Assembly: GCA_002269645.1 (NCBI GenBank)
Contig: NIVC01000826.1
Location: 1 to 64,000, forward strand
DNA length: 64,000 nt
Origin: Macrostomum lignano
Lineage: Eukaryota
Direction of reading: 5' to 3'
Positions 10,807 through 62,679 of the stretch are shown piece by piece. Below the pieces are notes generated by a model. That model did no database searches. It worked only from the letters and a program-made list of their open reading frames with translations, and was not told the DNA's origin. A program made the position numbers and the translations under genes. Each line of letters opens with the position of its first letter. Within the stretch, counting starts at the first letter, position 1.

Positions 10807-12279
10807 TTACAATGGTGCGTCCCGAACAATCGTGCCATCAGCTTTAGCAATTGACATATATTCCTCTAGAAACAATACGTGGGCGTCAAGTGCCTGATTA
10901 CCGGTTTTATTAATCTCTAACATATAATTAAGTCCAATATTGGCTACGTTTTCTTTCTGTGCCGTTAGATCATAAACAACCACTGGATGAATGTTTAGAA
11001 ACTCTGTGGGTGTATACTGAGGGACGGCATATGCTTCATTTTTGGCATAATCTTGATAATATTTTATAAAATCATTAACATTATTATTTGCTATATTTAA
11101 ATTTAGGGGGTCTTTAACCGGATAATATTGATCATCAACCTGCAGGCGGATATTCTGAACATTAAACTCGTTAATTGCAGCAACTGCGTTGTCTGTTGCG
11201 GTAGCTGCTTGTGCTGCTATGTCACCCGATTGAAGCCAATATAAATCCCCATTTGCTCTTTTACTCCTTCTATTTGTTATCTTAAACCAAACAAAAATAT
11301 ATCTCACCCGACGTTTTGATGTCAGTATTTGCCACTGGAATGAATCCTGGTTATTATTAATGGTTCGCATAAAATGTCGACGATTCAAATAAAATATTTC
11401 CTGATCATGCGTTAACTGATTATCGATGTGTTTTAAAAGTGGGGCTGTTACCTCAATAGTTGGTACGACTAATTGAATTGAATCTATACGAACTGCTATA
11501 TCGGTTGAAATTGAGGTTCCATAAAGTATCCTAGGCTGATATCCACCAGATATTTGCAACTGTATCCCAAATTTTAATCCTTTCCATACCCGATTTGGTG
11601 AGAAAAACCCAAATAGTGGAAAGATTGAAAAGTCCTGCTCATATGCTGTTGCTGTGGTTAAAACCGCGACTGGGAATTTATTATGACGATCTATAAAACC
11701 AGTATTAATATCTTTTGTATTAGTCATAGTGGTTACAACTGGAACTATGTTTGTATTAAGGTAAACAATTAGCGCTGCAGTATCTGCACCGGCTGCGTTT
11801 TGTACATTAGGTAAAACTACTGCTTGCCCGTTACCTTTATCCGGCATCCACCCAACATTATCACCAACTTGTTTTGATAAATAAGTATAATTTAAATGTT
11901 TCAAAACTCCATTAATCTCTGCGGGGTTTGATGATGTCTCAACCTCAGCACCATTAACAGTTAGTTGAGCTTGGGAAAAACATTTATAAAACCAATCATT
12001 TTCTATTATTATTCCGGATCGATCTGCGATATCTCCGGCTGCAAGAGCAGTTCCATCATTTCTAGTATACAACCATCTAACGCGGAAAAACGCATTTTTC
12101 ATATCCAATATAGTGTTGGTTGCGCCGATGTCAAAAGTTACCGTTCCAGTAGTAAAGTTATTTGAATTATCACTTGTTGGTAGGGTATAATTTAAATCTT
12201 TTGCTCTGACCTCATTAATATACTGTCGGTGCTTTTTGAAATGAAATTTATCACTCCACATAGTTTTTGTTTCAGCCAT
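10807..12279 (-). CDS. Major capsid protein (double jelly roll)
   Basis: 490-aa intact beta-rich ORF (CFSQAQLTVNGAEVE; NIRLQVDDQYYP; VVYDLT) adjacent to the ATPase and penton. Confidence 0.85.
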   Translation of the reverse strand: MAETKTMWSDKFHFKKHRQYINEVRAKDLNYTLPTSDNSNNFTTGTVTFDIGATNTILDMKNAFFRVRWLYTRNDGTALAAGDIADRSGIIIENDWFYKCFSQAQLTVNGAEVETSSNPAEINGVLKHLNYTYLSKQVGDNVGWMPDKGNGQAVVLPNVQNAAGADTAALIVYLNTNIVPVVTTMTNTKDINTGFIDRHNKFPVAVLTTATAYEQDFSIFPLFGFFSPNRVWKGLKFGIQLQISGGYQPRILYGTSISTDIAVRIDSIQLVVPTIEVTAPLLKHIDNQLTHDQEIFYLNRRHFMRTINNNQDSFQWQILTSKRRVRYIFVWFKITNRRSKRANGDLYWLQSGDIAAQAATATDNAVAAINEFNVQNIRLQVDDQYYPVKDPLNLNIANNNVNDFIKYYQDYAKNEAYAVPQYTPTEFLNIHPVVVYDLTAQKENVANIGLNYMLEINKTGNQALDAHVLFLEEYMSIAKADGTIVRDAPL

Positions 12280-12313
12280 TTTTTTAAGTTAAAAAAGTTT
12301 TTTATGTTAAAAA

Positions 12314-12983
12314 ATGAGTCAATTTATGGACGTTGATGGAGAGTTAGCGATTTATAAAGAGAAGCAAAGATATTCTGATTTTGTTAGAAATTTACAAAAA
12401 AGAAAGTTAGGATACAATTAGCGGGTGAAAGATTTGCTGCTCCTTTTGTTAATCCTATTACTGGGAAAATAGTGAACTAGAAAAAACAGATAAAGATCTT
12501 CTGGAAAAAATTGCTAAAAATACGGAGCCAAAAGAGGATGAAATTTTGGATGAGCCGCCTGCTTATGATGTTGATCAAGCACAATTGAGAATTGCAGAGA
12601 TTAGACGTGCAGAGCGGGGCGATCGGGAACAATATCCAAGAGTACCAGCTAGTATTGCTGCGACAGATTTAGGTAATAATAATTATCGAATTGGTGGAGT
12701 TGATAAAAATCGAAATGAACTATATAGAGAATTGGGTGGAGCATATAATATTGTTATGAACCCTAGGGTAAAGTTTAACCCTGATTTATATACTAGGGAT
12801 GAATTAATAAGTGCTAGAATTTTTTATGATGAGTTAGGAGGAGCTGTTAAAAATACCAGCTTGTATAAAAGGATTGTTAATTCTATAAATAACAAACCAG
12901 CTGTTGGAGAAGGATTTAAAACACCGCGAAAACTTGTTTTAGCTGCTGCGAAAGCTGCTGGACATACTGGAATCGCCCCGTAG
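12314..12983 (+). CDS. Polinton hypothetical protein, probably starting at ATG 12314 with two frameshifts
   Basis: MSQFMDVDGELAIYKEKQR... from 12314 (TTAAAAAATG) links to ORF 12546-12983; C-terminal VGEGF resembles an adenain site. Confidence 0.5.
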
Positions 12984-13035
12984 GGTCGCGAACCAAAGGT
13001 TCGATTAATTAATTGTTAAATTTATTTTTTATAAA

Positions 13036-13638
13036 ATGGATGAAACAAAAATTTGTACTACGTGTAAAATTGAGAAACCGATGACTAAAGAATTTTTTTG
13101 TTGGAGAAATGACACAAAAAAATTTAAAAATCTTTGTCGATCTTGTGAGAAAGTTAAATGTACTATGTGGAGAATAAACAATAAAGATAAATGTAATAAA
13201 TATGCAAAAAATAAATATCGCACTGATGAAAATTTCAAAAATATTAGTCTAATTAGAGCTAAAATAACTTGGGCATTGAGAACTTTTCATGACAAACATT
13301 ATATCTCCTATCTTGGTTGCACAAAAGAATTCTTTTTTGATTGGTTAAATTTCACAAGAAATTATTATGTTCCAAAAAATTATACTGGAAAGTTAGATAT
13401 TGATCATTTCATTCCCGCTTCTTCATTTAATTACAAAGACGATGATCAGATTAAAAAGTCTGAAAATTGGAGAAATAAAAGATACTTAACTAGCGTAGAT
13501 AATAACTATAAAAAAGTTAAACAACCAACAATTGAAGAATTTGCGAAACAATTGGTGCTTTCATGTATTTTTAAGGCTATTAAAAATGAGCAACCGAACG
13601 AAGTTCGCGTTCCTTCGGAACGATCAAATAGTGTTTGA
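13036..13638 (+). CDS. Free-standing HNH endonuclease (giant-virus/EndoVII-like) with N-terminal CxxC-CxxC zinc finger
   Basis: CTTC...CRSC; YLGCTKE; LDIDHFIPASSF...NWRNKRYL...DNNYK (His, Asn, Asn HNH core). Confidence 0.82.
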   Translation: MDETKICTTCKIEKPMTKEFFCWRNDTKKFKNLCRSCEKVKCTMWRINNKDKCNKYAKNKYRTDENFKNISLIRAKITWALRTFHDKHYISYLGCTKEFFFDWLNFTRNYYVPKNYTGKLDIDHFIPASSFNYKDDDQIKKSENWRNKRYLTSVDNNYKKVKQPTIEEFAKQLVLSCIFKAIKNEQPNEVRVPSERSNSV

Positions 13639-15196
13639 AGGAGGATTGTTAGATGTTCAAAAAGGATTAACAAGCTTACCACCAATCTTTACTACTGGTA
13701 AATATACAGGGGAACTACACCTACCATCAATGAACTTCACAGGTTAACCCGTGGCCTGAGTGAGGAAGGCAATGTCCTTGCTAGTCACTATTTGTGGCGA
13801 CATCTCCAAATTGCGTGAAACCCGTCATACAGCTTCAAGTACCACTTCAAGTGAGAAATCTTTTGAAGGAACAGAGGTAACTCCTCTTCCCAAAGGTAAA
13901 AAGCTTGAAGACACGGTGGCAATGCGCAGCCAAGCTCCTAAGTATTTTAAATATAAGGAGAAGGTTCAGAGAGCAGACGGAGATGGGCGGTAATTATCGC
14001 CGCTTAAGGTGTGCTCCAGCCTCATTCGAAAGATTGAGGGTAAACAGCCGGGGACTCGCTTAGATTTGAGATTAAATCCTGATGACACCCCAAAATCTGA
14101 TTCAATTCCAATAAATGGGATTGATTGGTTAGCATACTATCACGACTTAGCATATAGAGATGCTGACAAGAACCCGCCCGAGGAAGCATTAAGATTAAAA
14201 CATGAAGCCGATCAAAAAATGATTCAAGGATTAGATAACTTACAAGGCTTATCGGTAGGTCAAAAATTAACTAGGTGGATGGTTAAAAAGATCTTGCAGT
14301 CTAAAGTTAAATTTGGTTTGGGAATTAATTATAATCAACATGGAAATAATTGTGTTGAGTGTTTACTATTAAGTGGCGGTGGGTTAAGTTCTGATGAGGC
14401 AAAGATTCTTCATAAAGAATATCGAAAACCTAAATTTTATAGAAAAATCATGAACTTCAAAAAGAATGAAATTTGGTATGCTGATTTAATGTCGATGCCG
14501 AACGAAAGAGGATATAAATATATCTTAACCATATTAGATGGTTTTACTCGATACGCGTGGGCTGTTCCTTTGAAATCCAAAAAAGGAGAGGATGTTGCTG
14601 CTGCTTTTAGAAGTCTTGGAGAAAAAAGCGAAAGATTGTGTGTTGACGAAGGAAAAGAATTTTACAATCCTCATATGTATAAATTATATCATTTTGAAAA
14701 AGGACAAGAAAGGAAAAAAGACGCGAATGGGGAGTATATTAATAAAATTTATTCTATTTATGGAGAGAGTAAAAACGCATTAATAGAAAGATTTAATAGA
14801 ACTTTAGGTAAGAAATTATGGTTTCAGTTTAGTCTTAATGGTAACCAAAAATGGGTAAAAATATTACCAGACGTAGTGAAAGATTATAACAATTCATATC
14901 ATTCAGCTATAAAGATGACTCCTCAACAAGCTTATAACAATCCTGAAAAAGTTAAAGTTACTTTTGGAAAATTTGAAAAAAATAAAAAGAAATCTTTTAA
15001 GGTTGGTGATTCTGTTTATATCTATAAATGGAAAGATAAGTTTGAAAAAGGAAGAAAAGGATATTGGAAGATAAGTGAGAAATTTACTATCAGTAAAGTT
15101 TTAAATACCAATCCTACAACCTATATAATTGCTGATAAGGACGGTGAAGAAATATTGGGTTCGTTTTATGAGAACCAACTAATATCAGCGAACTAA
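13586..15196 (+). CDS. PLA2-domain / retroviral-type (rve) integrase fusion; exons 13586-13744 and 14048-15196, split by a group I intron
   Basis: Spliced junction gives GELHLPSMNFTG|PGTRLD...PINGIDWLAYYHDLAY (parvovirus-type PLA2 Ca loop and HD). Integrase DDE: WYADL, CVDEGKEF, LIERFNRTL; C-terminal FKVGDSV...TYIIAD...GSFYENQL. Confidence 0.92.
13745..14047 (+). ncRNA. Group I self-splicing intron (IC1-like), 303 nt, no internal homing endonuclease
   Basis: 5' exon ends in U13744 and intron ends in G14047. P1 CAGGU/GCCUG (13740-44/13754-58) with U.G at the splice site; P3 CAUCUCC/GGAGAUG (13801-07/13979-85); P AAAUUGCGUGAAA; Q AAUGCGCAGC; R GUUCAGAGAGCA; S AAGGUGUGCUC; P7 GAGCA/UGCUC; P8 GGCGGU/AUCGCC; P9 CCUCA...GAAA...UGAGG. 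Confidence 0.92.
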
Positions 15197-15206
15197 GTTC
15201 GAACAA

Positions 15207-15431
15207 TTACTTAAGACAACATGGTAGTAAATTTTTTATTACAAACAAAAACAATATTATTACTATAATTGTTACTAATATTATTATTGACATTTGTTCA
15301 ACTGTTATCAAACTTAAATTTTCATTAAGTTCATTAATTGGAACATTTCCGATGTAGGAATAGTTTACCTTCATTTTTTTATATATATTTTTCACAATAA
15401 ATGTCGTTTCTGTTATAGAATAATAGTTCAT
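15207..15431 (-). CDS. Small single-pass membrane protein (74 aa)
   Basis: Hydrophobic IIILVTIIVIILFLFVI; TTAAAAAATG start. Confidence 0.55.
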   Translation of the reverse strand: MNYYSITETTFIVKNIYKKMKVNYSYIGNVPINELNENLSLITVEQMSIIILVTIIVIILFLFVIKNLLPCCLK

Positions 15432-15447
15432 TTTTTAAATATTTTTT

Positions 15448-15762
15448 TCACATAAAAATTTCACTTTCATTCTCTGAATCACTGGTTTCATATGAACTAT
15501 TTGTTGATTCGGAATCTGTTGATCTAACCTCCCAATCATCCGAATTTAAATAATCTCCAAGTTGAAATATTAACTCACCCTCTTGTTCTAAATCATACAT
15601 CTCATCTAGCTCTAATGGATAAAGTTTTAGGTCGTGCTTGTCGTCATATTTTAAATAAACTTCATCAATTATTCCATTCAAAATATGTTGTTTTATTATC
15701 TCTGCATTTTTAGCAACAGTCTCAAAAGTATCACTAACAGAAAAGGTGTAAACTCGGTTCAT
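15448..15762 (-). CDS. Acidic hypothetical protein (104 aa), last ORF before the terminus
   Basis: Intact ORF, TATAAAAAATG start. Confidence 0.6.
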   Translation of the reverse strand: MNRVYTFSVSDTFETVAKNAEIIKQHILNGIIDEVYLKYDDKHDLKLYPLELDEMYDLEQEGELIFQLGDYLNSDDWEVRSTDSESTNSSYETSDSENESEIFM

Positions 15763-15852
15763 TTTTTATAACAGAAAAAGACCCTTAGCGCCTGCGGCGC
15801 GTGCGACGGGTTCTAGAAAGTTTGTGTGTGTTGGAGAGAGTTGGAAGCGTTG

Positions 15853-16090
15853 ACGATACAAAATACCCAGCAAACCAAAGCGAACGACGAGAGCGTGTTC
15901 TCACCATTCAAAAAGAATTAATCGTTGTAAGTGTGAAATGGCCTGTTTGACCGAAATGAAGCGAGGATGAGCGAAGCGAGTTGAGCGAAGTGAAGACGAG
16001 CGAAAATGAAGGGAAACAGGCCATTTCACACTGATAAAGGGTTAAATTGTTTGCAATGGTGAGAATGGTTTGCTGGGTATTTTGTATCGT
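15853..16090. repeat. Subterminal nested inverted repeat (long hairpin) in the Polinton right end
   Basis: Perfect arms 15853-15877/16066-16090 (25 bp), 15898-15908/16055-16065 (11 bp) and 15930-15948/16014-16032 (19 bp); purine-rich loop with GAGCGAAG repeats. Confidence 0.9.
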
Positions 16091-16539
16091 ATATACTCAG
16101 TATCAAAAAAAACTTTTATGAATTTTCTTATATTAAATAATACATTAATTTAACTTTAACGATATAAAATGTTTCTTAAGCCTTATAATTTTTAGTAACA
16201 TAATATTAGTAATAAATAATTACTAAAGTTTATCTAGATTGATGTAAATTATAAAAATTTTACCTTATACTTATATTTTTTATATTAGTTATTAAAATAA
16301 ATACCAGAAATATACTTTTTTACACATATAGAAGTCTATTAATATCTTTAACTGTTGATCTTTTGGTAAGCTAATTTTTGTTTTATTGTTTTGTATATGA
16401 TAAGCTTAACTATTCTAGCAACAAGTTAGTTGACAAATATTTTTTGTTTGATTGTTAAACTTAGAACACTTAATGGTCAGTATTTTTCTAGTGTAATTTT
16501 CTTAACTTAAGTATTTCTACATTTTTCATGATTCTCAGT

Positions 16540-19528
16540 ATGAGTGAGTTGCAATGGGTTCTTGACACAGAATTTGCCCCAACTTTGCATGAAATTACCA
16601 TCTTAGTGGATGAATGCAACTCAATTATAACAAGTGCAACAGGAAAATTTATACTTGGTGGCAATGAGTAAGTCTTACTTTTAGCTATTCAAAAAAGCCT
16701 GAATAAGAACCAATGATTTCACATTTTCAACAATGCCTATTTGTGCAATTCAAACTTTAGCTTAAAGCTCAATGGACTCAAAGCAATGGTGACCATGAAC
16801 TCAGATGAAATCACTGAAGCTGTAAGTGTTATTGGTCATTGGAATTTGAGCATCAGGATAATGCATTCATAATGCAGTTTTGTCCTTTCAATCTATAGGA
16901 CATCAGTGTTGAGTGCCCCAACAAGCAGACCTACAGGACAGTCATTGCTGATGGCTGTAGCTACAGAATGCAGCAGGTAATCCTTATGCTAAATAAATGC
17001 CGTTTGCATGATATTCTTATTTTTTAAAAAAAGCAGAGCAGTTTGGCGCTAAATGCTTCCGACTCTCACGCCACAAACCCCTGGTTTGATTCGGTGTGCA
17101 GCCTGGCTGGAGTGTAACTGTACATCTCTGACGATTAGAACCCTGTGCAGGCGTGTGTATGAGTGCTGTGCATGCGTACAGTATTGCTGCGCTTGTACCT
17201 GCTCAGGTGTCAGCTGGAATGGGCAGAATTGACTCACCTTAATAGCCCCACAGCACTTCTGTGAATAGATTGATCGTTCATATTACTATCCAGGGGGTTG
17301 CAGCCTAGTGGGGGGGGGTTGTAGCCTAGTGGGGGTTGTAGCCTAGTGGGGACCGGGGTTGTAGCCTAGTGGGGGTTGTAGCCTAGTGGGGGTTGTAGCC
17401 TAGTGGGGGTTGTAGCCTAGTGGGGGACCGGGGTTGTAGCCTAGTGGGGGTTGTAGCCTAGTGGGGGTTGTAGCCTAGTGGGGGTTGTAGCCTAGTGAGG
17501 GGTTGTAGCCTAGTGGGGGTTGTAGCCAGTGGTTAAGAGCGTCGGACTCACGACTTGAAGGTCGTAGGTTCGATTCCCGATCCCGCTGGAACAATTTGTG
17601 TCCTTGAGCAAGGCACTTAACTCTGCATTGCTTCAGTTCAGCCAGCTGTAAAATGGGTGCCAGCATTAGCTGGGGTAATTGAGGGTGTGTGGCGACCCCC
17701 CAGTCCTTGGACTGAAAAGTCGTACAGCCTTCAGATGCGCCGCGCAATAGCTGCGCCTGCGGCTGAGCTGTCGGTTGCACATCTGGCCATTAGGGCAGGT
17801 GTAATCAGTTATTATTATTACTATACAAGGCTCTCAGCAAAGATTTCATCAAACTGGTTGGTTAGATCAACAAATCTTAAATGCATGACTCATGGTTTTC
17901 TAATGCACGTTACGCAAGCACCAGTGGCATTGCTTCTCCCTGTTAGTTAATATGATCAGCCATTGTTTAAACCCCAACCAATTATTTTAGCTGGTAAACT
18001 GCTGCAACGCTCTGCAGGCGGTTCGCCTGTCAGTTCAAGATGCCATTGAGTTTGGCTTTGCAAGTTCCGAGCCGAGGCCTACTATCGCGGTGAGTTCTGC
18101 TCTGCCTCTGTTCCAGTTTCGGCGTCAGTTCATGGTTTTAAACATCATATTTTCACTTTTTTGCCGCAGTCACTGGGTCGAATATTTGAGCTGCTCAAGC
18201 AGGCCAGGGATCATATTGTGCTGCCGCAGAAACGCACAGTTGAGGATCTGGTCCGCAGCACTACTAGGGTGAGTGTGATGTGTGCGTGAGTGTGTCTGTT
18301 TGTTGGAATTTTACAACTCTGAGTTCTGTAAATCAGAGTGTTTAGAATGAACTCAGTTAGCTTAGAAATCCAGTATGTTTTATATGCTGGATCTGATTGT
18401 TTAGAATGCCAGAGTGCTTGGAATCAGAGTGCTTAGAATCAGAGTGCTTAGAGTTAGAGGGCTTAGAATCAGAGTTCTTAGAATCAGAGTGCTTAGAATC
18501 AGAGTGCTTAGAACCAGAGTGCTTAGAGTTAGAGGGCTTAGAATCAGAGTTCTTAGAATCAGAGTGCTTAGAGTTAGAGGGCTTAGAATCAGAGTGCTTA
18601 GAATCAGAGTGCTTAGAATCAGAGTGCTTAGAGTTAGAGGGCTTAGAATCAGAGTTCTTAGAATCAGAGTGCTTAGAGTTAGAGGGCTTAGAATCAGAGT
18701 GCTTAGAATCAGAGTGCTTAGAATCAGAGTGCTTAGAGTTAGAGTGCTTAGAATCAGAGTGGTTAGAATCAGAGTGGTTAGAGTTAGAGGGCTTAGAATC
18801 AGAGTGCTTAGAGTTAGAGTGCTTAGAATCAGAGTGGTTAGAATCAGAGTGGTTAGAGTTAGAGTGCTTAGAATCAGAGTGCTTAGAATCAGAGTGCTTA
18901 GAGTTAGAGGGCTTAGAATCAGAGTGCTTAGAATCAGAGTGGTTAGAGTTAGAGGGTTTAGAATCAGAGTGCTTAGAGTTAGGGGGCTTAGAATCAGAGT
19001 GCTTAGAATCAGAGTGCTTAGAGTTAGAGGGCTTAGAATCAGAGTGCTTAGAGTTAGGGGGCTTAGAATCAGAGTGCTTAGAGTTAGGGGGCTTAGAATC
19101 AGAGTGCTTAGAAACAGAGTGCTTAGAATCAGAGTGGTTAGAATCAAAGTGGTTAGAGTTAGAGGGCTTAGAATCGAAATTCACAAGAGTTCAGAATCAG
19201 AGTGCCTCTATAAAAGTACCTACAGCTCAACTATGCTTAGCATCCTTCATCACACCCGGCACCCCAGGAGCTGTTCCAGCCTCAGTTGCCCAACGACATC
19301 TGCCTGTCGCTATACGTCAGCGGGCAGAAGCTGATCCTGGCGGTGTACTTCTTGCACCACAACCAGCTGGCAGCGCCTCACCCTCATGCGCACGAAATTG
19401 CCTACAGGCTGAACATCCAGGCTGTGGTCCCCTGGCTGGGCAAAGTTCTCCAGTGCCTGTCTATGGCCATGCTAAGGACTTCTCAGCTCATTGAGAAGCT
19501 CAACAGAATTTGCTACACATTGGGATGA
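16540..19528 (+). CDS. rogdi: Rogdi homologue (multi-exon)
   Basis: GT-AG exons 16540-16667, 16761-16821, 16899-16976, 17991-18089, 18170-18268, 19268-19528 give ELQWVLDTE...; YRMQQ; LLKQARDHIVLPQKRT; LFQPQLPNDICLSLYVSGQKLILAVY; VVPWLGKVL, collinear with the ROGDI sequence as recalled. The 5' end is uncertain (an AG precedes 16539). Confidence 0.8.
17293..17520 (+). repeat. 16-17-bp tandem repeat GGGGTTGTAGCCTAGT (amplified SINE 5' end)
   Basis: About a dozen copies running directly into the SINE head. Confidence 0.85.
17516..17720 (+). mobile_element. tRNA-derived CORE-type SINE in a rogdi intron
   Basis: A-box GTAGCCAGTGG, B-box GGTTCGATTCC (17567-77), then GTGTCCTTGAGCAAGGCACTTAAC...CAGCTGTAAAATGGG resembling the MIR/CORE domain. 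Confidence 0.75.
18401..19175. repeat. 15-bp intronic satellite (TTAGAATCAGAGTGC / TTAGAGTTAGAGGGC)
   Basis: About 50 near-identical units in the last rogdi intron. Confidence 0.95.
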
Positions 19529-58000: not shown

Positions 58001-59433
58001 AAGGTGATAATTAGGTGCGAAAACGAGAACAATAGAAAGAGAAAATCGGAGAAAATGTGATAATTGGTGGGGGGTAAAGAGAACAAAAGAATCAAAAACG
58101 AGAACAATAGAAGCGGAGGTGGGGTGGGTGTCGCATGAGAAATTTGGGGAGGAGAACAATGGCATGAGAAAAGGTTCGCAAGAGAGGGGGGTGAGTCATC
58201 GATGAGTCATCGAGGGGAAGAGGGGATCACACGACTTGCGTCACCGTTTGGAAGTTTGAGAAGGGATGGGGAACGGGGAGCACACAGAATACTGTAAGTA
58301 GACACAGGGAAAGAGGGGACAGTGCAGGAAAATAGTGCGAAAAGGGGCCAAAAGAGGGGAGACAGGAAGAGTACATAAAGAATAGGGAGGCGCGCAGGGG
58401 AGATAGGGTAGAGGGGGAGGTACAAAGAGGGAGGGGGAAGCTCCGGAAAGGCAAGTGTGGCGGCAGGAGAGACGGAGCCAAGGCAGCAGGGGGTGCAGCA
58501 GAGCGAGAGTCTCCAGGCCTGGTCGAAGACCTGGCCGAGTCTCAACAGCTCTGTGCAGGGGGTGCACGGCGATAGAAGGCACTTTCGAAAAAGTTCCCCT
58601 GCCCTATCCCGCGACCAGAGCGTGGTTACATCATTTTCAGCTAATCTCGTCCGATAATTTATTTCTTACTATTTGATTCCCAAAAAATGCGAGAGCTCAG
58701 ATGAGCAGCTAAGCTGAAGGCGGGGGCTGCAGTGGACCGAATGGCCAAACATGAGTGCCGTAGTCGATCAATGAATCAATAATTTTGAATCAGAATTCAA
58801 GCTGCTGCAGTCATATCATGTTCTTCATCAGTGCTGATTCACATGCGTTAGAGGGACAAAGGACGTAGTGTATTATATTAGTATATTTGGCATTGATTGA
58901 AGTCATTTAATTTATAAATAGTCAGCGCCAGAAAAATATCCTATATACCTTAGGTATATAGACGTCGACTATATAATGACGAGGGACGACTCACCCCTGC
59001 AGAGGAGCGCAGAGAGGATAAAATGTACGGAGCCGCCTGCACAAGAACACGTGCTTAATTGTTAAAGGAATAAGAGAACAAATTAAACAAAAACCACAAA
59101 CCGGCCACAGGGCCGAAAAAGTCACTCGAAAAAACGGCCATGCATACACCAAAAGTAAAATTTTTTACTGTGCATTAATTTGGCAAGAAAGAATATCGAA
59201 TTTTCCTAATTTTTTGAGCGAAAAGTTTTATGAATATCGATAGAGCAATAAGAAAGGCACAACATATCAAAAGATGAGCACTGGATCTGCCTCCTATCAA
59301 AAGCAATAACAATTTTTGTGCTGAAAAAATAAAAACTTCCAATCTCCGTATTTTTCGGAAAAAACTTGCCTTCCAAATTTTTCTAAGAAACGAGCTGGTT
59401 TCGGAACCGTCCTTCTACTTAAGTCGTCCTTGA

Positions 59434-60625
59434 ATGAATCGTGCAGTATATTTACACGAAATAGAATATAAATTCGAAATTCGAATGAATCGTGTAGTAT
59501 ATTTACACGAAATAGAATATAAATTCGAAATTCGAATGAATCGTGTAGTATATTTACACGAAATAGAATATAAATTCGAAAGTCGAATGAATCGTGCAGT
59601 ATATTTACACGAAATAGAATATAAATTCGAAAGTCGAATGAATCGTGCAGTATATTTACACGAAATAGAATATAAATTCGAAAGTCGAATGAATCGTGCA
59701 GTATATTTACACGAAATAGAATATAAATTCGAAAGTCGAATGAATCGTGCAGTATATTTACACGAAATAGAATATAAATTCGAAAGTCGAATGAATCGTG
59801 CAGTATATTTACACGAAATAGAATATAAATTCGAAAGTCGAATGAATCGTGCAGTATATTTACACGAAATAGAATATAAATTCGAAAGTCGAATGAATCG
59901 TGCAGTATATTTACACGAAATAGAATATAAATTCGAAAGTCGAATGAATCGTGCAGTATATTTACACGAAATAGAATATAAATTCGAAAGTCGAATGAAT
60001 CGTGTAGTATATTTACACGAAATAGAATATAAATTCGAAAGTCGAATGAATCGTGCAGTATATTTACACGAAATAGAATATAAATTCGAAAGTCGAATGA
60101 ATCGTGCAGTATATTTACACGAAATAGAATATAAATTCGAAAGTCGAATGAATCGTGCAGTATATTTACACGAAATAGAATATAAATTCGAAAGTCGAAT
60201 GAATCGTGCAGTATATTTACACGAAATAGAATATAAATTCGAAAGTCGAATGAATCGTGCAGTATATTTACACGAAATAGAATATAAATTCGAAAGTCGA
60301 ATGAATCGTGCAGTATATTTACACGAAATAGAATATAAATTCGAAAGTCGAATGAATCGTGCAGTATATTTACACGAAATAGAATATAAATTCGAAAGTC
60401 GAATGATTCGTGCAGTATATTTACACGAAATAGAATATAAATTCGAAAGTCGAATGAATCGTGTAGTATATTTACACGAAATAGAATATAAATTCGAAAG
60501 TCGAATGAATCGTGTAGTATATTTACACGAAATAGAATATAAATTCGAAAGTCGAATGAATCGTGTAGTATATTTACACGAAATAGAATATAAATTCGAA
60601 AGTCGAATGAATCGTGTAGTATATT
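59434..60625. repeat. 51-bp satellite, about 23 copies
   Basis: ATGAATCGTGCAGTATATTTACACGAAATAGAATATAAATTCGAAAGTCGA units. Confidence 0.97.
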
Positions 60626-62679
60626 GTGACGAATAAATTGGCGGGAAGACGGTTTGTGTAGCGGTTAATTGGATAGTTCACGATTTAGATTTAGCAGATC
60701 GGCAAGCCGCTTTCACCCTTAGCGTTACTTTGAATCGTTATGCCTTGCAAAGATCGGGATTCAGTTGATTGGTTGGTGGGTTGGTGAATTGTAAAATTGT
60801 AGAACACTGTCACACTAAAATATAAAATTCTGCTACATGTATACGTACCTGTGCACGCGTATATTCCATTTATTTTCGACACCGAAAATGTTTTAAATTC
60901 ATGCATTTTTCAGCTCCAAGCAGAAAGAGGGGACAATTAAGATTATCAAAGGTCAAGATTCAAGTTTTCTGCTTTTTTGAGGATCTTAGAAATTAAAATT
61001 TCAAAATTAAAATAGCCTATAGCCGACCTCGGATAATTTCCAATCTTCCCATATAAGTTTCAACGCTGAGTTGCCACTATTCAAGGAGGAGTTGTCGTAA
61101 TGACAGACAAACAACACGTGAACTTTAGTATATGTAGAGAAGAAGAGATAGAAAGATAGAAGAGAAGACTCAAATTTAGAAACTTTTAAGGTAAGCCTAA
61201 GACATTCTCCGTAGTGAGTTTAGGGTGGGTGCAAAATTTGGTGTAATTTGGTTGAGCAGGTTGGAGTCCATAGCGATCAAAATTGTACACAGACAGAGTT
61301 TTGATTTTTATATGTAGAGAAGAGATATAAGACCAGAATCGTAGATTATGGATTAATTGGAATCATTAACGACGTTAAACTTGAGCACAGTAATTAAAAG
61401 CAAAAAAATCTGTCAAATAATATCAAATGCATGACTGAATACAAATTTCGAAGCAACCCAGCAAATCAAGTTATTCATAAAGCCAATGAGCTGAGGCGTG
61501 CCATTATACTGTTTTTTTCAGGCACAGGACAGGTGCCATTGTACGTAGAATAAGAAATAAAAGAATCCTAATTTTCTGAACGAAACGCTTTATGAATATC
61601 AATAGAGCTATAAAGAAAGGTACAGCATATTAAAATATGAACATTAGATCTGCCTCCTTCTGTAACATCAAAAGCAACAACAATTTTTGTGCTGAAAAAA
61701 ATGAGAACTTCCTATCCACTAGTCTATTTTTCTGCTAAAAGTGGCTGTGACGTTGTCAGTTTAAGGTGGTCCCGAAAAGGGCCGTTGGACTGCTGTTTCT
61801 CTATAGTTTCAACCCTTCAGTTTCACCGTTTCAACTAAACTTTTCTATTTGTTTATTGCGACGTTTACTTGTAGTAGTGCCCAACGATTTTGTGGCAATT
61901 TCTAATTCACTGTATATTTTACTATCCTCTCTCGCGACCGTATAAAATTGGCACGATCGATAATTTCAAGTTCTCTCGCCAGCCAATGAAAACTCTCCGT
62001 GTTTTGCGCTTCCCCCTCTGCGCTCCTTTATTAAACCCCCCGCCTGGCGGCAGGCACTCCTCACTCCCTGCTCGTCCCTGTTCTTGTGTTCTGTGTTCTC
62101 TCTCCTTAGGCTTGCCTCCGTCCCGTCTGGCTTGCCTAGCCTTGTCTAGCCTTGTTTTCCTTCTCTCTGTCTGGCTGCCTCGAGCCTCCTTACCTCACGC
62201 CACGGCTGACGCCAACTTCGCCACTGCTCATCCGCCTGCCTACTACGTCTCACTGCCTTCACTGTACTCATTGCCATTGATCATCACGTTACGTCGCCAT
62301 TATATCACTCGTCTGTCGCTTGAACTCACATCCAATTTACCTTAAAAGAAACCATTGTTGCAGCCGCCAGTGCCCAGAAAGCAATAGTTTGTTATTTGCC
62401 AGTAACAACCAAACTTACTATTTACATTGATAATAAAAACGACTACGGCAGTTCCCTGCCCTTATTGCCAAGTGCTCCGCTACACCATCCACTTCGCCTA
62501 AGTTGACTTCAACTTATTTTGGGACTAAAACGGCCCTTTTAAGGGTCACGGCCAACATCAAATAACGTGACAGTGGCCTTCAAAACATTTTCCATAGCTT
62601 TCTAGTGTTGCGTCCTTCTACTTTAGTAGTCCTTGACTCAAATATTTTGAATACCGAATTCTAACCTCTGTCAGGTTTG

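Follow-up and report, generated by a model that had tools for sequence, protein, structure and literature searches.

A group I intron of probable giant-virus type interrupting a PLA2-integrase gene in animal Polintons, and its putative link to a nuclease predicted to cut GGNCC

Introduction

Group I introns in Polinton-type elements have been reported from the Polinton-like viruses (PLVs) of the protists Rhodomonas lacustris, Paulinella micropora and Desmodesmus armatus (PMC12220804). In a 2013 review, nuclear group I introns are placed solely in the rRNA genes of microbial eukaryotes (PMC3679873). It is an open question why group I introns are missing from animal nuclear mRNA. A literature search, with subscription journals, Repbase and preprint supplements outside its scope, returned no report of a group I intron in animal nuclear DNA and none of a group I intron paired with a restriction-like nuclease in animal genomes, while a word search of the available portions of nematode, coral and adintovirus Polinton papers and of a 2026 PLV preprint found no such intron. 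We consider it likely that the animal case is unreported.

The sequence examined in this study (the window) is a stretch of 64,000 nucleotides from Macrostomum lignano (contig NIVC01000826.1). The original prediction for this window was a group I intron carried by a Polinton; as a novelty this is limited by the protist PLVs already published (PMC12220804), and the new aspects are the animal host and the link to a nuclease. The explanation that we favor, with moderate confidence, is that a giant-virus-type intron interrupts the PLA2-integrase gene of an animal Polinton, is spliced from the mRNA, and is kept and spread by a nuclease that cuts GGNCC. With more than 100 copies, three intron families and intron-less alleles alongside them, the question of group I introns in animal nuclear mRNA becomes testable in one organism.

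Results and Discussion

The Polinton and its host genome

The first part of the window (1..16097) is a Polinton/Maverick element whose left end is missing at the contig start; it was recognized from matches to PF03175 and PF04665, an integrase, a capsid-like ORF, an element terminus and empty sites. Its right terminal inverted repeat (15800..16097) measures at least 298 bp and recurs at both ends of other copies, approximately 17.5 kb apart, and a 6-bp target duplication was present in two of the four other copies checked. Among the Polinton hallmarks, polymerase B, integrase and ATPase were identified by Pfam, the capsid by an atlas lead and the protease by motif. The protein-primed DNA polymerase B occupies at least two ORFs on the forward strand (1824..4128; PF03175, E 1e-16), and the A32-type packaging ATPase lies on the reverse strand (9955..10755; PF04665, E 8e-7). 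The adjacent reverse-strand ORF (10807..12279) probably encodes a double jelly-roll major capsid protein, based on atlas clusters at 0.97-0.98, some of them DJR/Capsid_N, with a low recognition score; neither Pfam nor PHROGs gave a capsid match. A probable cysteine protease (8457..8846, reverse strand) was recognized by eye from its motif, with no family match in Pfam or PHROGs. In the window copy the polymerase is split and the protease frameshifted. An ORF with an F5/8 type C domain and a repeat-rich, fibre-like ORF were also observed inside the element (6995-8394).

Beyond the element, the host flank (16098..16980, forward strand) occurs without the element on two other contigs. Rogdi-like host exons with short introns lie at 16540-16980, approximately 450 bp from the element end (the PF10259 match is weak, E 0.019), and a second AT-rich stretch at 59000-62000 contains a repetitive 400-aa ORF (59434-60636) and shows no GGNCC deficit. 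The assembly contains matches to Wnt, Cys-loop receptors, collagen IV and troponin, the last of which we take to be a bilaterian marker gene, and these sequence matches point to a bilaterian-type animal as the host. On four contigs a Wnt match and an intron copy occur together, one pair about 23 kb apart. The predicted integration of the Polinton in an animal nuclear genome was confirmed by the Wnt matches on intron-bearing contigs, the empty sites and the element terminus. Many host genes recur in three or four near-identical copies, and element counts given below therefore include haplotype or ploidy duplicates.

The interrupted gene and the boundaries of the intron

Exon 1 (13586..13744, forward strand) comprises 53 codons that match the N-terminus of intron-less homologues, and its final residues are Thr-Gly, the Gly being the first of the GPG loop. 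Exon 2 (14048..15196, forward strand) is a single open frame of 382 aa that starts with Pro-Gly-Thr, carries the HDxxY motif of the PLA2 core at residue 32, and leads without a frame change into a retroviral-type integrase; Pfam returned PF08398 at E 0.0017, below its cut-off, and PF00665 at E 7e-8. Because exon 2 runs on into the integrase, the gene is a PLA2-integrase fusion. The original prediction of an interrupted PLA2 gene was thus right about the restored PLA2 frame and the HDxxY motif, but the gene is larger than a PLA2 gene. The metagenomic PLA2 homologue P0001 (66%) starts exactly at Pro-Gly-Thr, as exon 2 would.

Between the exons lies an insert of 303 nt (13745..14047, forward strand) with stop codons in all three frames and a G+C content of 46.5%, compared to 33% for the element. 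In the same genome, the Gly and Pro codons are contiguous in 23 intron-less alleles (3 from Polinton family 1, to which the window copy belongs, and 20 from family 2); both intron ends are therefore fixed at 13745 and 14047, as predicted, and the insertion point separates the Gly codon from the Pro codon in the PLA2 calcium loop (GPG). Intron-less alleles show a single open frame of 431-463 aa. A covariance-model search, the check proposed with the prediction, matched 13735-14038 to Rfam RF00028 at 65.7 bits (E 3e-16), above the gathering cut-off of 50 bits of this general model, and the insert is indeed a group I intron.

Two readings that dispense with such an intron in an animal genome are extremely improbable: that the insert is a spliceosomal intron, and that the contig stems from contamination by a protist or a virus. 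The window copy does have GT at 13743 and AG at its end; however, each GT-AG pair near the ends leads to a frameshift or leaves an in-frame stop in place, and only 10 of 111 3' ends genome-wide are of the AG type. Contamination is contradicted by the same Wnt-bearing contigs and empty sites that place the element in its host. A cryptic in-frame 3' splice site at G14038 was also considered; it is unlikely, as this base lies within P9 and splicing there would lengthen the calcium loop by three residues. Since P9.0 points to 14047, the 3' end is placed there.

Fold of intron A

Three group I intron families, A, B and C, occupy the one Gly-Pro insertion site, and the window copy is of type A, with no ORF, a variant P7 and a terminal G. 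Its helices were located on the window numbering and compared across 48 unique sequences of type A. All predicted core features were recovered in this comparison, including a P3 of 7 bp, P4, P5a/b/c, P6, P8 and a P9 capped by GAAA. P1 (13740..13758, pairing 13740-44 with 13754-58, forward strand) has five pairs, unchanged in all 48 sequences, with the expected U13744.G13754 wobble at the 5' splice site. P7, the guanosine-binding helix (13969..14017, pairing 13969-75 with 14012-17, forward strand), is likewise invariant (48/48) and retains the bulged A13970 and the binding pair G13971-C14016. The compensatory nature of its departures from the usual sequence also held up, with three pairs exchanged on both strands relative to all 11 unique sequences of family C. 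The stretch 14018..14047 on the forward strand contains P9.0, P9 and the 3' terminal base, which is G in this copy and A in most others; P9.0 of the window copy has an A.A mismatch.

In 13 of the 48 unique type-A sequences a block of four adjacent P2 pairs has both bases exchanged, probably in a single event, and comparison with the 11 unique family C sequences showed further two-sided changes in P3, P4, P5a, P5b and P5c. Across all type-A helix cells there were 60 two-sided changes, 105 one-sided changes and 78 broken pairs, many of the last in P5, P8 and P9. Part of the P8 alignment is faulty in type A, and broken pairs counted in P8 of family C, where the rows are out of register, were disregarded. 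The folding z-score of the whole region is only -2.2, a modest value that is expected because the core is pseudoknotted. Group IC1 introns have P2, P2.1, P5abc and extended P9.1/P9.2. The first three are present here, while P9 is short and leaves no space for P9.1/P9.2.

Several smaller features of the fold deserve mention. At 14011 the final base of J8/7 is G compared to A in family C; it adjoins a swapped P7 pair, and the two may form a co-varying base triple (Tetrahymena numbering). Double-hairpin modules of approximately 30 nt are inserted at multiple places in the periphery of introns A and C (L034, L043, L098, L101, L104, L105) and are possibly a tiny mobile element. Similar hairpins lie close to the PLA2 start, and loose ends were seen near 13593-13621, 13829 and 13893. 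From the structure as a whole, we infer that intron A is probably removed by the group I pathway.

Terminal base, selection and splicing

The terminal omega-G of the original prediction is present in the window copy but is the minority state genome-wide. A pattern count found 111 type-A 3' ends, of which 84 carry A, 17 carry G with a full P9.0, and 10 carry G with the P9.0 mismatch of the window copy (27 G in total); P9.0 is complete in all 84 A-ending 3' ends but mismatched in 10 of the 27 that end in G. Among the full copies read, 57 of 74 end in A and 17 in G, a set that leaves out four partial type-A loci (L091, L092, L095, L099). The A ending was seen in contigs from four of four sequencing runs, belonging to four studies, and is therefore no assembly error. 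The intron tree requires at least nine changes of the terminal base, and both endings are found on introns whose bodies are identical.

Of the A-ending copies, 47 of 57 have both exon frames open, as do 15 of the 17 that end in G. Within the A-ending set, exon 1 has a pN/pS of 0.26 (calculated from 54 of 57 copies, 23 of them unique) and the beginning of exon 2 one of 0.05 (from 50 of 57, 17 of them unique), values that may stem from G-ending or intron-less backgrounds because the elements recombine. In contigs from four runs guessed to be RNA, a joint skipping 13745-14047 appeared in none of the four and two long contigs retain the intron, an outcome that weighs neither way, since rare forms are lost from such contigs, which may also derive from DNA.

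With the G-binding pair unchanged, an intron that ends in A should be slower in the second splicing step. It is conceivable, but quite unlikely, that the A-ending majority, or indeed every copy, is dead for splicing and that the elements persist through complementation in trans by G-ending or intron-less copies, or through an integrase started at the in-frame ATG at 14219. The missing terminal G in 84 of 111 ends, the availability of that ATG, the split polymerase and frameshifted protease of the window copy, and an intron B that offers no clean in-frame 3' end would all agree with such decay, but decay is difficult to reconcile with the invariance of P1, P7 and the S element in all examined copies, with the full P9.0 of all 84 A-ending ends, or with an exon 1 that is open and under purifying selection. 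Furthermore, introns ending in A can splice in vivo, as reported for the corallimorpharian ND5-717 intron, which lacks the terminal G yet is spliced in vivo at lower efficiency (PMC6545197). The A-ending copies quite probably splice, and this majority provides a natural test of how strictly a terminal G is needed. In our favored explanation, the intron would leave the viral mRNA by two transesterifications, A-ending copies included, and host or viral proteins would probably assist.

Introns B and C and relatives outside this genome

Intron B was read at five loci (L081-L084, L096), where it scores 41.6-42.9 bits to RF00028, below the cut-off, and its signature offset occurs in 25 of 150 PLA2 matches. 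Part of its periphery is common with intron A at 77-81% and its core is different. It shows a long P10-like pairing with exon 2, and no 3' end was found that both fits P10 and retains the usual loop residues. Intron C, of the second Polinton family, scored 72.7-91 bits in the 28 matches scored, 12 of which were read; it has a canonical P7, a terminal G and an ORF in the P2.1 loop whose frame continues through the ribozyme core (e.g., L209 at 13-893, and L101-L115). In the intron tree, A and C are sister groups relative to the giant-virus introns.

Searches with a PLA2 alignment identified 80 metagenome loci and 2 IMG/VR loci, while a single PLA2 sequence gave no IMG/VR match. In these 82 outside loci the insertion site is contiguous in 76 by rule and in three more by eye, two lack the motif, and L149 is ambiguous; of the 15 loci scanned with Rfam, none yielded a group I intron. 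The 18-base core motif occurs in at least 122 IMG/VR stretches, and the closest IMG/VR relatives of the intron are 72% identical over 193 nt. The giant-virus relatives interrupt RNA polymerase, capsid or VLTF3-like genes (assigned by eye), with RF00028 found in five of seven, and the type-A P7 variant was in none of the 87 readable P7 strands among 125 IMG/VR matches. No IMG/VR locus was found with a nuclease query. In six of nine close metagenomic nuclease homologues the frame extends into a group I core, which is of type A in three, and the variant P7 is visible in translation in one. Among 148 more distant homologues, read-through into a group I core was found in one by rule and in one by eye. 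Judging from these homologues, composite nuclease-introns also exist outside the Macrostomum lignano genome. These findings suggest that a giant-virus-type group I intron may have entered the PLA2-integrase gene between the calcium-loop Gly and Pro codons, which, if true, would mean intron traffic between giant viruses and animal Polintons.

Nuclease genes beside and inside the introns

The ORF of intron C matches PF09553 (Eco47II) at 30.3 bits, above the cut-off of 25.9, and this family was matched by 11 of 11 members of the nuclease family. A free-standing form, approximately 65% identical to the intron C ORF, immediately precedes exon 1 in some family-1 copies and scores 20.6 bits to PF09553, below the cut-off. 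The Eco47II-like nuclease is 167 aa long. A structural model of the free-standing form (pLDDT 89.9) best matches EcoO109I (Z 9.7, rmsd 3.8, 166 aligned), the sole chain with Z of at least 8 among 48,161, at 13% sequence identity, and DdmD, EcoO109I and AvaII took the top ranks in Foldseek. A PDB sequence search with the nuclease profile gave no significant match, and NCBIfam gave none for either the Eco47II-like or the HNH-like nuclease. According to the predicted structure, the nuclease is an Eco47II/EcoO109I-like enzyme of the PD-(D/E)XK fold.

EcoO109I cuts RGGNCCY and AvaII cuts GGWCC (PMC7337904), Eco47II homologues are assigned GGNCC (PMC10305163), and Eco47II is listed as a bacterial type II enzyme in a 2012 table (PMC3424549). 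By this sequence relationship, the Eco47II-like nuclease probably cuts the intron insertion site, GGNCC; counting against that specificity, an EcoO109I-like fold alone does not fix what is cut.

The slot upstream of exon 1 holds the Eco47II-like gene in 17 of the 89 loci tabulated (15 type A and 2 type B) and an HNH-like gene in 61 type-A, 3 type-B and 3 intron-less loci. The window copy carries the HNH-like gene in this slot and not the Eco47II-like gene. Its free-standing HNH/endonuclease VII-like ORF (13036..13638, forward strand), which overlaps exon 1, was recognized from PHROGs 1035 (E 1e-3) and 2255 (E 3e-3) and from atlas leads, with no match in Pfam; between copies the gene is 74-100% identical and varies more than the intron or the integrase.

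It is possible that this HNH-like gene is what mobilizes intron A, and that the GGNCC deficit described below arose from codon use or from old, lapsed selection. The gene stands beside 61 type-A loci compared to 15 with the Eco47II-like gene, its homologues are found in giant-virus introns, and a mild GGNCC deficit occurs elsewhere too. We nevertheless find this explanation very unlikely, as three of three intron-less family-1 alleles carry the HNH-like gene, which therefore need not target the insertion site, and as family assignment, fold and site depletion independently indicate one motif.

No contig was seen to carry both a nuclease match and any of the 23 intron-less alleles. For family 1 this exclusion (17/0 vs 64/3) is not significant (P = 1), and for family 2 it is entailed by the layout, since the nuclease lies inside the intron.

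Depletion of GGNCC and a proposed route to maintenance of the intron

Whatever codons are used, Gly followed by Pro spells GGNCC, and this is the insertion point of all three introns. The 16.1-kb window element contains a single GGNCC, at 8494 at the protease frameshift, where 13.9-17.5 are expected, and a 9-kb family-2 element contains none where 9.3-10.4 are expected. GGNCC ranks lowest among 256 spaced patterns in both Polinton families and is absent from every one of 80 family-1 loci (11 of them duplicates). At the protein level, Gly-Pro dipeptides number 1 and 0 in the two families compared to 5.4 and 5.8 expected, while Pro-Gly numbers 5 and 7. Host DNA is itself low in the motif by approximately 25-35% (45 vs 66-72 expected, and 49 vs 61-67), and after correction for this baseline the depletion has P values of 9e-4 and 2e-3, the two families not being independent samples. 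The 82 outside PLA2 loci contain 266 sites compared to 278 expected, or 186 without the obligatory site. A mild deficit (rank 1-3 of 256, with small numbers) was seen in L123, L127 and L177, which are intron-less metagenomic elements.

These observations can be explained by a nuclease of the Eco47II/EcoO109I type that would cut GGNCC and in this way maintain and spread the intron. Intron-less elements would be cut at the insertion site and then either repaired from an intron-bearing copy or lost, whereas intron-bearing elements would be immune because the intron splits the GGNCC. A five-base cutter could act like a homing endonuclease because nearly all other GGNCC sites have been lost from the element, and the intron would be kept because it splits the one site that the element cannot purge. 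The two layouts, with the nuclease inside the intron (family 2, intron C) or free-standing upstream (part of family 1, introns A and B), would then be two stages of collaborative homing. In its boldest form, which we put a little short of an even chance, the explanation is homing by restriction without modification, in which every GGNCC has been purged except the split Gly-Pro one, and more than 100 introns, mostly with a terminal A and with a rewired P7, are spliced out of transcripts made by RNA polymerase II in the nucleus of a bilaterian. If true, a restriction-type nuclease of only 167 aa acting as a homing enzyme would represent a new route to mobile introns.

Host DNA contains one GGNCC per 400-500 bp, and a five-base cutter would therefore also cut the host, which counts against homing, as does the persistence of 23 intron-less alleles. 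A frequent cutter is well suited to degradation, and it is possible that the GGNCC nuclease is a viral weapon directed at host DNA, a helper giant virus or rival Polintons, with the intron as a shield of the one unavoidable site that spreads by competition and not through homing repair. Such a role would suit the element-wide loss of sites together with the absence of a cognate methyltransferase match among the 16 ORFs of the window element scanned with Pfam (a copy without the Eco47II-like gene), and there are precedents, since interference by intron nucleases has been proposed for Bodo saltans virus (PMC5871332) and restriction-modification systems for PLVs (10.64898/2026.06.19.733378). However, the nuclease gene lies within the intron or abuts exon 1, an arrangement typical of homing genes, and intron divergence averages 4% compared to 27-36% at flanking synonymous sites, which fits recent copying, although it would also fit constraint. 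We judge the weapon explanation unlikely, though not negligible, and prefer maintenance and spread through cleavage of the insertion site, an activity that we infer from family, fold and depletion.

Comparison with known systems

The introns described here resemble those of protist PLVs in matching RF00028 over approximately 300-380 nt, in interrupting a protein gene of an endogenous Polinton-type element and in occurring in many copies per genome (PMC12220804). They differ in host and gene, an animal and a PLA2-integrase gene rather than a protist and a short ORF before the capsid gene, and the part of that paper available assigns no nuclease and gives no splice-site analysis (PMC12220804). 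The adintovirus gene PLA2X is likewise a parvovirus-like PLA2 gene in animal Polintons; the accessible portion of that report mentions no intron, and here the PLA2 is fused to an integrase (PMC8502044). Nuclear rDNA introns share the nuclear location and the P2, P2.1 and P5abc periphery (PMC3679873). The hexacoral ND5-717 is also an animal group I intron in a protein gene without a terminal G, but it is mitochondrial, obligatory and vertically inherited, whereas the present introns are nuclear, viral and polymorphic for G and A (PMC6545197).

As in giant-virus introns (polr2a/b of Bodo saltans virus, PMC5871332, and IMG/VR L226, L285, L250, L260, L211 and L269), a nuclease ORF in the 5' part runs into the core, and the insertion falls in a catalytic motif; the giant-virus introns of these sources carry HNH or GIY-YIG genes, unlike the Eco47II-like ORF of intron C. 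Collaborative homing, exemplified by the phage psbA intron and F-CphI, similarly pairs an ORF-less intron with a free-standing nuclease beside it (PMC3984707, PMC11296320). As in that system, a composite intron-encoded form is also present here, although the insertion site is only the presumed target of the Macrostomum lignano nuclease. Collaborative homing has been shown in phages with nucleases that recognize long sites, while the enzyme here resembles type II restriction enzymes and presumably recognizes five bases. Its specificity would come from the loss of sites within the element itself.
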